This document shows positions 6,301 through 8,066 of a stretch of 64,000 nt of DNA, one piece after another. Source of the stretch: a virus. A program made the position numbers and the translations under genes. Where the stretch lies: the IMG/VR virus record IMGVR_UViG_3300029448_000009, positions 1-64,000 of that record. The stretch is one strand, 5' to 3'. The notes beneath the pieces were generated by a model, which saw only the letters and a list, made by a program, of their open reading frames with translations, ran no database searches and was not told where the DNA came from. Every line of letters starts with the position of its first letter. Position 1 is the stretch's first letter.

Positions 6301-7011
6301 TTATTTTAATTTATATTTAATTTTACCATCTTCTATATATAAACCTTCACGCTCTTTTATAGCCTGTCCGTTTAAATTATATAGTATATTGTTGGATTTA
6401 GATTTATTTATTAATTCATCTATAGACGAGTTACAAGGTTGCCCTGTATCACAATCTATGTATTCTGTAACATATTCTATAAACTCTACATATTCTATTT
6501 CTACAATTGTATCGTAAACAAATACGTCAACATATTCAATAACATCTACAAAAAGAGTATCTAAGATATCTTCGTAAATAGTTACTGTGTCTGTTATATA
6601 AATGTATTCTGGAACAAACACTTCTACTTCTACAGTGTCTATTACAATGTTGTATATATATTCTGTATTAACTATAGTATCAAATATTGTTTCATATATA
6701 GTTTCATATTCTATTTCATATATTGTATCACACTCTTCTATAATAGGAGGTAAACAATCTAATGGTGATGTTGGCTCTGCATCTGCTTCATCTGACCCAT
6801 CTGCACAATCTTCCCATCCATCATTAAGATAAAATAGATCTGGACCATTAGGTACACATCCATCAGGTGAATATTGTGTCCAGTTAGCTGGATCATCTCC
6901 ACAATAAAATCCATTTTGTTCAGCGCACTGTAAACATAGTTGTTGAAAGTCAAATTGCGAATAAGCAAACGAGCTTATAAATGCAAATAATATAATAAAG
7001 AGTTTTTTCAT
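6301..7011 (-). CDS. Secreted protein with LDL-receptor class A-like module, DT(I/V/L)-repeat stalk and T9SS-CTD-like tail
   Basis: Signal peptide AYS-Q; C...NDGWEDCADGSDE; C-terminus LYNLNGQ...GLYIEDGKIK. Confidence 0.65.
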   Translation of the reverse strand: MKKLFIILFAFISSFAYSQFDFQQLCLQCAEQNGFYCGDDPANWTQYSPDGCVPNGPDLFYLNDGWEDCADGSDEADAEPTSPLDCLPPIIEECDTIYEIEYETIYETIFDTIVNTEYIYNIVIDTVEVEVFVPEYIYITDTVTIYEDILDTLFVDVIEYVDVFVYDTIVEIEYVEFIEYVTEYIDCDTGQPCNSSIDELINKSKSNNILYNLNGQAIKEREGLYIEDGKIKYKLK

Positions 7012-7013
7012 AA

Positions 7014-8066
7014 TTAAAAGAATAAATAGTTAAATCCAAATTTTACTTCATATACTGGTTTTTCCCAGTACTTCATATGTGTCCCCTCTATAAATAATCC
7101 TAAATTTTTTGTTATCCTTTGTCCAAATACTATTCCCGCATCCCATTCTAACCAATCTAGATCTTGTGTACCGTACTCAAAAGAGTAATCATCTAAGCCA
7201 TAATGATACGGTAAACAATTAACCCAAGCATGTAACCAAAACTTAGGTGTATATTTATAATATGCAATTCCTATTACTGCACTTAATTCTTTTTGTATTC
7301 CTAATTTATCTAACTCTCTTTCATTAAAACGTGCAACTGCATCTCCAAAGTAGTGGTTAAAGAACTCATCATTACTTGTTGCTACAAGAGTAGAATCACC
7401 TTCTGATACATCATACCAGTTATTATTAACATAAAATCCTTGAATCCATTGTTCTGGAGCATATCCAAAGTCCTCTGCTAATTGTTGAAAGGATGACTCG
7501 CCAGGTACCCAAAAGTCCCTAATAGGTACAAAGCCATAAGCAGGATGAGCTCTAACCACCGCTCCTACTGTAAAATCCCAGTTTCCTGAGTTTATTCTAT
7601 ATCTTGTATCAAAAGAAGTAAATTGTAAATTTACTCGCTGATTGTTTTTATATTGTGCTTTGGTTACACATTTAGTTCCTAAATATCTAATCCAAAAATT
7701 TTGATCAGTAAATTTTTCACCACGATTCCGTATAAAAGAATAATTAAAAAGATACTCCCAGCCATTAGCATTACCAATAGTAACGTTGTCTGAAACAGCT
7801 CTTTCAGTACCATAGTACCATGTTTTAACTTTATATTCATAATCAAATCTTGCTATTTTACGAATTCCTACGGTTAAATTATAATCATAAGGATTAATAT
7901 CTGTAACATCTTGATAACCTTTATCTATAGCTACATAATCTTCTCTTTCAGTAAAAGAGGTATTCGTGCTCATAGATGTGTAGAATGTAGAGTATTTAAA
8001 AAAATCTTCTATTTGACCGTTACATACACTGCTTATAAAGATAAGCAAAATTATTATATTTTTCAT
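7014..8066 (-). CDS. Putative outer-membrane beta-barrel protein
   Basis: Signal peptide ending CNG-Q; alternating aromatic/hydrophobic strands; C-terminal YEVKFGFNYLFF beta-signal. Confidence 0.7.
   Translation of the reverse strand: MKNIIILLIFISSVCNGQIEDFFKYSTFYTSMSTNTSFTEREDYVAIDKGYQDVTDINPYDYNLTVGIRKIARFDYEYKVKTWYYGTERAVSDNVTIGNANGWEYLFNYSFIRNRGEKFTDQNFWIRYLGTKCVTKAQYKNNQRVNLQFTSFDTRYRINSGNWDFTVGAVVRAHPAYGFVPIRDFWVPGESSFQQLAEDFGYAPEQWIQGFYVNNNWYDVSEGDSTLVATSNDEFFNHYFGDAVARFNERELDKLGIQKELSAVIGIAYYKYTPKFWLHAWVNCLPYHYGLDDYSFEYGTQDLDWLEWDAGIVFGQRITKNLGLFIEGTHMKYWEKPVYEVKFGFNYLFF

Follow-up and report, generated by a model that had tools for sequence, protein, structure and literature searches.

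Why should a marine phage carry, among its late genes, a set of genes whose products appear to be destined for the envelope of the host? The question is raised by two adjacent minus-strand genes in the IMG/VR virus record IMGVR_UViG_3300029448_000009 (85,154 nt, 98% complete by CheckV). The first 64 kb of the record (positions 1 to 64,000), referred to as the window, were analysed. The two genes, identified as open reading frames (ORFs) at 7014..8066 and 6301..7011, lie 2 nt apart and encode predicted exported proteins of 350 aa (B) and 236 aa (A). B is a probable outer-membrane beta-barrel of a phage-restricted family, and A is a modular protein. On the same strand follow the genes of a predicted bitopic inner-membrane protein of 114 aa (1954..2298) and of an exported 127-aa thioredoxin-fold protein lacking a CxxC motif (1574..1957). 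It is well supported that this region is an island of late-expressed genes targeted to the envelope, carried by a marine crAss-like phage whose host belongs to the Bacteroidota. The firm result is that the island is conserved and phage-specific, and that its core parts, judged by sequence features, are predicted to lie in the outer membrane, the periplasm and the inner membrane. As to its function, the reading tentatively ranked first is that of a spanin-like device acting on the outer membrane during lysis.

Two predicted exported proteins are encoded in the late block of a crAss-like phage

When the window proteins were scanned against PHROGs, the terminase, portal and major capsid genes matched crAss-type families. 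The capsid protein is approximately 30% identical to those of named crAss-like phages, and 29 Flavobacterium phage records were also matched. In the ORF map the minus-strand genes from position 1 to about 31 kb form one late block. According to the accessible text of PMC10136315, late structural and lysis genes of crAss-like phages make up one transcription unit. DNA of the window was present in marine or seawater metagenome runs of 12 studies dated 2014 to 2025. No tblastn match to B, A, the thioredoxin-like or the bitopic protein was obtained among the cultured phages of INPHARED, in a version from which the genome of the window and its near relatives may be missing.

Export signals were looked for genome-wide in the 331 ORFs of at least 35 aa. 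Only three coding-strand ORFs were found to combine a signal peptide with glutamine at position +1, namely B (Q18), A (Q19) and the thioredoxin-like protein (Q20). All three show the n-h-c layout and small residues at -3/-1 (the cleavage contexts, with a slash at the cleavage site, are VCNG/Q18 in B and AYS/Q19 in A). These features are conserved across the respective families, and in none of the three proteins does a hydrophobic helix follow the signal peptide. Glutamine at +1 is described as the Bacteroidetes 'Q-rule' of signal peptidase I substrates (PMC5837995, PMC10653852, as far as their available text goes). The Q-rule has already been noted in Porphyromonas gingivalis phages (PMC10367356). 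There, as here, it concerns proteins of unknown function that are fitted to the Sec/signal peptidase I pathway of Bacteroidota and were proposed to modify the outer membrane. Those phages differ from the present one in being temperate siphoviruses with unrelated proteins, and the accessible part of that report describes no trio of barrel, bitopic and thioredoxin-like proteins. The suggestion of the first-pass annotation that two adjacent genes of the late operon encode exported proteins was thus upheld, both having a signal peptide with glutamine in a crAss-like late block.

Assemblies of RNA libraries (four runs from two studies) contained short, nearly identical contigs located in B (7442-7592, 7754-7904 and 7466-7616) and in A (6429-6663). 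DNA carry-over is possible in these libraries, and the evidence that they provide for expression of A and B is weak; rows of low share, depth values and bins lacking cover were set aside. Another RNA-library contig, X18, joins positions 2309 and 6294 of the window, skipping 3984 nt; the junction is weak, its shorter side being only 24 nt. It corresponds to the compact order, A followed by the bitopic gene, of relatives without the interleaved tail-fibre-like genes.

The conserved unit consists of B and two partner proteins

Gene order was compared in a close set of 80 IMG/VR loci encoding a B relative of 66-99% identity. In 78 of these loci A comes directly after B in the same orientation, and the other two end 70 and 92 nt past B. 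Forty-nine loci extend at least 5.5 kb downstream of B. Detections among them numbered 49 for A, 46 for the thioredoxin-like gene, 31 for the bitopic gene, 26 for the gene of a 70-aa membrane protein (tm70) and 12 for the endolysin gene, by tblastn with the window proteins, a search that misses diverged copies. The tail-fibre-like neighbours of B were mostly not conserved in the close loci.

The distant set comprised 13 loci whose B is 28-44% identical to that of the window. A was not detected in any of the 13. The order B, bitopic gene, thioredoxin-like gene was contiguous in L083-L086 and L090. In L089 the bitopic gene directly follows B, in L087 and L088 both partner ORFs were visible on inspection, and in L091 and L092 the arrangement differs. 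All 13 loci are on contigs of metagenome-assembled genomes (MAGs) with inconsistent taxon names, and this placement probably represents mis-binned phage DNA. Searching with a crAss-type major capsid protein (MCP) gave no match in four of five MAGs with distant trio contigs, and one weak match on another contig. The names attached to L082-L094 include Pelagibacter, Parvibaculum, Nitrosopelagicus, Woesearchaeota, Rickettsiales, Maricaulis and also Flavobacteriales, which calls for caution in MAG-based host assignment. Directly upstream of B in L082 (7583-7990) an envelope-related neighbour was noticed, with a match to the beta-domain of mechanosensitive channels (MS_channel_2nd, 1.6e-5).

An independent set was selected by the capsid protein. 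It contained 365 MCP relatives, from which the 13 records of at least 40 kb, five of them at least 90% complete, were examined. B is encoded by 12 of the 13 records, including four of the five that are at least 90% complete. Three genomes (G412, G413 and G415) carry the contiguous trio of B, bitopic and thioredoxin-like genes without A, and G405 has all four genes. G408, a complete genome with terminal repeats, lacks B, A, the bitopic and the thioredoxin-like genes jointly.

By gene content and order, the conserved unit is B plus the bitopic protein plus the thioredoxin fold without CxxC, rather than B plus A. A is, on the same comparison, a lineage-specific insert between the B and bitopic genes. 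The proposed link of the exported pair with the thioredoxin-fold and bitopic proteins in one module is borne out by the shared gene order of 80 viral loci and 13 loci from MAGs, and by the joint loss in G408. The idea that A and B are the core of this module had to be abandoned, since none of the 13 distant loci has A and three of the four near-complete genomes with the trio lack it.

B is a probable outer-membrane barrel of a phage-confined family

The B family comprised 293 proteins of public metagenomes at E<=0.001, the best 120 of which are 65-87% identical, and 241 cluster representatives with identities down to approximately 30%. The Atlas clusters holding B are 100% viral. When the family profile was run against 401 Flavobacteriaceae genomes, the one strong match was a stray phage contig of 7.6 kb; two weak matches in AraC-type regulators, considered as possible cellular homologues, were rejected as chance. 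P0262, a relative of 31% identity, was not found among viral contigs. As far as sampled, the B family is confined to phages. The window protein had no match in Pfam, PHROG or NCBIfam, none of 28 aligned members gave anything in Pfam at E<=1, and the family profile yielded only a chance match against the PDB.

The signal peptide of B covers residues 1-17 (8016..8066) by sequence scan. Of 100 distinct members that are 320 aa or longer, 91 have a signal peptide with glutamine after it. At the opposite end B terminates in the strand KFGFNYLFF (7017..7043), in which G344 is invariant and N346 and Y347 are nearly so. This resembles a beta-signal, the consensus of which is a C-terminal strand ending in an aromatic residue. 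The last residue is F in 83 and Y in five of the same 100 members (88 F or Y), and 98 fit the end motif G-x-N-Y-x-[IF]-x. Aromatic residues make up 19.6% of B, 9.3% of the other proteins of the phage and 14-16% of reference barrels. The named Atlas clusters nearest to B in two queries were all outer-membrane barrel families (DUF6850, Phenol_MetA_deg, Autotransporter/Porin_2, OMP_b-brl and Chlam_OMP), with language-model scores of 0.92-0.93, which serve as leads only.

Dyad periodicity was intermediate. The median z of the B family was 1.78 (1.03 for the window protein alone), the reference values being 3.04 for PorP/SprF, 3.07 for DUF6850 and -0.20 for 35 other window proteins. The periodicity is interrupted by a conserved, non-alternating insert at residues 174-258 (7293..7547), with a median z of -0.90 against 2.43 in the flanks, when the family is split at borders chosen post hoc from the alignment. 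The insert probably forms a separate domain of the barrel protein, either soluble or helical. Charged residues conserved in the predicted strands are E104, R127, R155, R172 and H279.

Profile comparison by hhalign gave 10% for B against DUF6850 (6 sequences) and 32% against 14 Flavobacteriaceae PorP/SprF proteins, the latter over the signal peptide only. DUF6850 and PorP/SprF themselves scored only 3-6% against each other, though both are known barrel families, so this method cannot assign the fold of B. A direct assignment of B to PorP/SprF (PF11751) was discarded, as there was no Pfam match at E<=1 in the 28 members and the hhalign match was limited to the signal peptide. B is thus a probable outer-membrane beta-barrel by prediction. 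The proposal of a barrel ending in a beta-signal agrees with the signal peptide and with the KFGFNYLFF terminus; the evidence for the fold is indirect, and no family homology was found for it.

The partners are a bitopic protein and a thioredoxin fold without catalytic cysteines

The bitopic protein matches phrog_20984, a family of unknown function. In the family alignment (approximately 95-115 aa) a cytoplasmic end of about 16 aa is followed by one transmembrane (TM) segment at about residues 17-37, a proline-rich hinge, ELPxPxPPxV, and an amphipathic helix of about 45 aa that is predicted to be periplasmic. The start of the thioredoxin-like gene overlaps the stop of the bitopic gene by 4 nt. 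The thioredoxin-like protein scored 33.1 bits with PF00085 (cut-off 23.5). At the position of the active site the family has FNAxWNxxN (WNNVN in the window protein), and CxxC is absent from seven of seven members. The cis-Pro loop is retained, and a conserved Phe stands at the end. PHROG scans of the bitopic and thioredoxin-like families returned families of unknown function or nothing, and no spanin PHROG. In place of the type I signal peptide, the thioredoxin-like copy of L083 (2915-3253) carries the lipoprotein signal LASC.

A is a lineage-specific protein with an LDL-receptor class A-like head

A has 1423 homologues in public metagenomes. Alignments of 19 and 18 diverse members divide it into five parts: signal peptide, head of about 75 aa, proline-rich hinge ending in C-D-T, stalk, and C-domain of about 55 aa. 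Nine cysteines are invariant in the family. Strict regular expressions applied to 75 members recognised the signal peptide with Q in 54, the LDL-receptor class A (LDLa) motif in 44 and the tail in 33; these counts are too low, the alignments showing that all three features are conserved.

The head (residues 19-94, 6730..6957) is a cysteine-rich, LDLa-like calcium-cage half-module with seven invariant cysteines. It contains the motif NDGWEDCADGSDE. Residues D64, W66, D68, C69, D74 and E75 are invariant, and the pattern is N-D-G-W-x-D-C-x-D-x-x-D-E. In LDLa modules the calcium-cage residues are spaced D-x-x-D-C-x-D-x-S-D-E after W/Y. The acidic cage of A, W/Y-x-x-D-G-x-x-D-C-x-D-x-S-D-E, has the same spacing. 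The family profile gave 37 matches in the PDB at E<=10, almost all of them LDL-receptor class A (best E 0.011), and the alignments, which include modules of LRP1 and VLDLR, always covered the calcium-cage half. Sixteen of 18 members were matched by Ldl_recept_a (PF00057), none of them reaching the curated cut-off (best member E 0.0033; window protein 9.6 bits, cut-off 24.1). Unlike a genuine LDLa module, A aligns with the C-terminal half of the domain only, the fourth LDLa cysteine is replaced by Asn, and the cysteine spacing differs. 'LDLa-like' is therefore apt as the name of a motif, and by these alignments A is not a member of the LDLa family. What stands of the calcium-binding motif first suggested for A is the acidic cage; the canonical six-cysteine spacing and the Pfam cut-off were missed. 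Calcium binding by the head is a prediction.

The elastic stalk (residues 95-182, 6466..6729) is made up of acidic, beta-branched repeats based on D-T-[IVLM] and varies from 6 to 166 aa across 71 members. The O-glycosylation sequon of Bacteroidota is given as (D)(S/T)(A/I/L/V/M/T) in the text available of PMC8550257. It occurs 469 times in the family, where 51.6 were expected from shuffles (9-fold enrichment), and six times in the window protein. Taken singly, 70 of 71 members are significantly enriched, and longer stalks hold more sequons (r=0.94). The stalk is probably O-glycosylated. The C-domain (residues 183-236, 6304..6465) is composed of the motif EY.DC..G.PC, a helix, and a Y-N-x-x-G / G-[ILV]-Y-I..G..K hairpin; invariant residues are E183, Y184, D186, C187, G190, P192, C193, Y211, G215, I226 and G229. 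Directly downstream of A two 94-aa basic proteins are encoded (5702-6290). They are present in only two of 80 related loci, and are a recent addition outside the cassette.

Genuine T9SS cargo occurs beside the trio in relatives, and A is not of this type

The tail of A had been likened to the C-terminal domains (CTDs) of proteins exported by the type IX secretion system (T9SS). A had no match to PF18962 or TIGR04183 in searches of Pfam and NCBIfam. A custom profile was built from 29 genuine Flavobacteriaceae CTDs. With this profile 75 A members scored at most 7.2 bits, true cargo 35-58 bits and the phage endolysin 7.1 bits, and hhalign of the A tail with the CTD gave a probability of 8% over 15 columns. 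What A and CTDs have in common are the motifs Y-[DN]-x-x-G-[QRK] and G-x-Y-[IF]. On these figures the likeness to a T9SS signal was not substantiated.

True type-A CTD proteins (E 1e-12 to 1e-19) were found beside the trio in four relatives. In L086 the protein (994 aa, 5015-7999) stops 2 nt before B. In L084 the gene (36-551) is cut at the contig end and stops at the start of B. In L083 (833 aa, 3686-6187) and in G412 (660 aa, minus strand, L257:5559-7541) it is located just after the thioredoxin-like gene. Por_Secre_tail (Pfam) reached 29.7 bits among the CTD proteins of trio-bearing relatives. Each of the three full-length proteins begins with a Q-rule signal peptide and contains 35-47 cysteines. 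Their cysteine-rich repeats are 45-56% identical to residues ~725-804 of a 1313-aa protein of the window (11307-15248) that has neither signal peptide nor CTD. The same cysteine-rich module seems to be used in presumably virion-borne and in secreted proteins. A showed no similarity to the CTD cargo proteins of relatives, and no CTD match was found in the 80 close loci or in the genome of the window.

The cargo beside the trio in relatives confirms a T9SS-bearing Bacteroidota host for the phage group, and keeps a reading as surface display alive.

The trio adjoins genes for cell lysis

At the edge of the record lie two lysis genes on the minus strand. An endolysin gene, lys202, occupies 185..793 (phrog_33083 endolysin, 3.2e-16; phrog_3000). 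The ORF at 3..182, which runs off the record end, encodes the N-terminal part of a holin (phrog_3427 holin, 6.8e-9). The minus-strand tm70 gene (5142..5354) specifies a 70-aa membrane protein that is holin-like in position; in L085 it stands directly before the endolysin gene. A 944-aa protein of the window (43207-46041) matches RIIA 'lysis inhibitor' PHROGs.

A lys202-type gene is located directly upstream of B in L031, L033, L036 and L039, and after the trio in L075 and L085. In L085 the endolysin gene is followed by a holin gene (Phage_holin_4_1, 2.4e-9). L086 encodes a PG_binding_1+Amidase_2 protein after the trio, and L087 a Peptidase_M15_3 protein directly before B. By gene order, the trio adjoins three non-homologous endolysin types, and the endolysin type was thus swapped on two or more occasions, with the trio staying in position. 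This link to endolysins and holins, which the first-pass annotation had not remarked on, shifts the most likely role of the trio toward lysis.

Spanins were looked for by their definitions in PMC6139136, in the part of its text available, where the i-spanin is a class II inner-membrane protein with a helical periplasmic domain and the o-spanin an outer-membrane lipoprotein. No lipobox ORF (at least 20 aa, any start codon) was found in window positions 1-8100 or in six of seven relatives, the only lipobox among the seven being the LASC of the L083 thioredoxin-like copy. Neither a lipoprotein nor an embedded o-spanin was found in the cassette, and no lipoprotein was found on the coding strand genome-wide. 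By the cited definitions the phage is therefore without a canonical spanin. Spanins are absent from about 15% of phages according to 10.1101/515445, as far as its accessible text goes. The bitopic protein has i-spanin features, being predicted from its sequence to be N-in/C-out with a helical periplasmic part, and the trio has the placement in a lysis cassette that is usual for spanins.

G408 offers a further comparison. In the segment L256 (G408:C1:34000-52000) of this trio-less genome, a 103-aa coiled-coil protein with a C-terminal TM segment is encoded beside the endolysin (8295-8606), and a 74-aa protein with an N-terminal TM segment directly before it (9292-9516). Neither was found in five of five trio-bearing genomes, in searches made with short queries and no positive control. 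These two small membrane proteins are candidate alternative lysis accessories.

A proposed spanin-like role of the trio and its alternatives

A spanin-like role was ranked first on four grounds: the adjacency to endolysin and holin genes, the lack of a canonical spanin, the i-spanin-like layout with its gene overlap, and the alternative membrane proteins in G408. B would sit in the outer membrane as a barrel with a non-barrel insert of about 85 aa, the bitopic protein would be anchored in the inner membrane, and the thioredoxin fold, with its catalytic cysteines lost, would reside in the periplasm. The three core proteins would assemble and link the two membranes. Once holin and endolysin have acted, the complex would breach the outer membrane as the last barrier, doing the job of a spanin of the Rz/Rz1 type. 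The barrel would stand in for the lipoprotein anchor, the dead thioredoxin fold would be a periplasmic adaptor, and A would be an accessory docking on B or modulating the complex. That the trio is a spanin-like module for the outer-membrane step of lysis is put forward tentatively, the localisations, the complex and the lytic role all being suppositions of this model. Slightly more doubtful is the wider proposal that it represents a previously unrecognised class of outer-membrane disruption, a spanin analogue with a barrel anchor, employed by abundant marine Bacteroidota phages, which a glycosylated, calcium-binding A would tune or extend.

Two-component spanins (lambda Rz/Rz1, T4 PseT.3/PseT.2) resemble the trio in several respects. 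The trio lies beside endolysin and holin genes, the gene of a small N-in/C-out inner-membrane protein overlaps the next one, which encodes a small exported protein (as described in the accessible text of PMC6139136), and the products are predicted to cover inner membrane, periplasm and outer membrane. The trio differs from them in having a 350-aa barrel in place of the o-spanin lipoprotein and a thioredoxin fold as third part, and it shows no sequence similarity to any spanin PHROG.

Several points weigh against a spanin-like role. Spanins are not known to contain a beta-barrel or a thioredoxin fold, the cassette has no o-spanin lipoprotein, and the barrel fold of B is itself a prediction. The periplasmic part of the bitopic protein measures only about 55-75 aa, which is short for spanning the periplasm. 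The trio is dispensable for a close relative, G408, and the search behind the replacement proteins of that genome used short queries and had no positive control. The proximity to lysis genes may reflect nothing but the end of the late operon, where accessory genes gather; tail-fibre-like genes and T9SS cargo are also found there. Finally, B has drifted apart as far as E~1e-96 in phages that share approximately 83% MCP identity, which fits a surface protein in an arms race equally well.

Nearly as likely as the spanin-like role is a remodelling of the cell surface, in which B, joined by A in the lineage of the window, would mask the phage receptor or exclude superinfection. Such masking, of a kind proposed for lambda Lom and other phage-encoded outer-membrane proteins (OMPs), could block later phages or spare progeny from being lost on the debris of lysed cells. 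Huge phages often encode barrel OMPs, for which receptor masking is the preferred hypothesis, with the Lom-LamB precedent (10.64898/2026.10.24.761521, in its accessible part). Like lambda Lom and the huge-phage OMPs of that survey (1,603 in number), B is a signal-peptide protein of a phage with barrel-type features, which the infected cell would make and insert into its own outer membrane. Unlike them, B matches none of the families named there (OmpA, OmpX, Lom/Ail and others; the comparison covers the named classes only), comes from an 85-kb crAss-like phage rather than a huge phage, and has two fixed partners. Beyond this precedent, masking would account for the evolution of B, much faster than that of the MCP, for its dispensability in G408 and for its position among hypervariable tail-fibre-like genes. 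In its build, with binding head and glycosylation sequons, A recalls a surface stalk, and genuine secreted T9SS cargo adjoins the trio in relatives, both of which suit a function at the cell surface. Masking leaves unexplained, however, the constant coupling of B to a protein of the inner membrane and to a dead thioredoxin of the periplasm, and the repeated adjacency of the trio to three endolysin types. A late-operon position is poor for early superinfection exclusion, though suited to the protection of progeny.

An association with the T9SS is considered unlikely. B would be the outer-membrane partner of T9SS-exported phage proteins, and A one such cargo whose C-terminal signal has been pared down. 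PorP/SprF-type barrels of Bacteroidota have their genes beside those of their (type-B) cargo. The arrangement in the phages recalls such systems of cargo plus PorP/SprF-type or PorV barrel, in that the host belongs to the Bacteroidota, the barrel gene is near genes for secreted cysteine-rich proteins, and type-A CTD cargo lies directly beside the trio in four relatives; the two motifs that A shares with CTDs point the same way. The systems differ in that B is not PorP/SprF by Pfam and hhalign and has no similarity to any other Pfam or NCBIfam family, and A is not a CTD protein, scoring no better on the CTD profile than the unrelated endolysin and being unlike the real cargo. The trio also exists without a CTD gene, as in the 80 close loci and in the genome of the window.

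Still less probable is an auxiliary uptake channel, with B as a porin-like protein that raises nutrient or ion influx during infection and the partners as chaperones. The conserved charged residues in the predicted strands, a size suited to a barrel of 12-16 strands, and the cyanophage OMPs reported in phosphate-acquisition contexts (10.64898/2026.10.24.761521, in its accessible part) agree with it; the absence of transport or metabolic neighbours, the late placement by lysis genes, and the lack of similarity of B to any porin family do not. That the hydrophobic N-termini are no signal peptides, and that A and B, encoded among tail-like genes of the late operon, are virion or assembly proteins, is highly improbable in view of the family-conserved signal-peptide layout with Gln at +1 in three of three proteins, the nine invariant cysteines and glycosylation sequons of A, which make sense only outside the cytoplasm, and the lack of a virion PHROG match for either protein. 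Among the surrounding late genes, one for a 447-aa protein (2709-4052) has a MAM domain (Pfam 1e-7), which is unusual for phages.

Implications for phages of Bacteroidota

Phage-encoded outer-membrane barrels are already known. What appears to be new is the B family, its two fixed partners, the tie to lysis genes, and A. No description of the trio, the B family, its connection with lysis cassettes or A was found in the literature covered, namely open-access main texts. The cassette is widespread and phage-confined, and its composition is without a described counterpart.

Few viruses of the gut and the sea are as abundant as crAss-like and other phages of Bacteroidota, and the way in which they cross the outer membrane at lysis, like their effects on the host surface, is poorly defined. 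In a crAss-like phage of Bacteroidota, the cassette may be a new way of acting on the host envelope. A is an example of a phage exploiting two phylum-specific pathways of its host, Q-rule processing and the O-glycosylation sequon, and its stalks form a natural length series that is useful where a function depends on distance. If the trio is a masking device, it would amount to an exclusion system extending over three compartments. If it is a lysis device, it would define a novel way of achieving the outer-membrane step and offer a new handle by which lysis cassettes of the phylum can be annotated; a barrel-anchored spanin analogue would help to explain how spanin-less phages of Bacteroidota leave their hosts.

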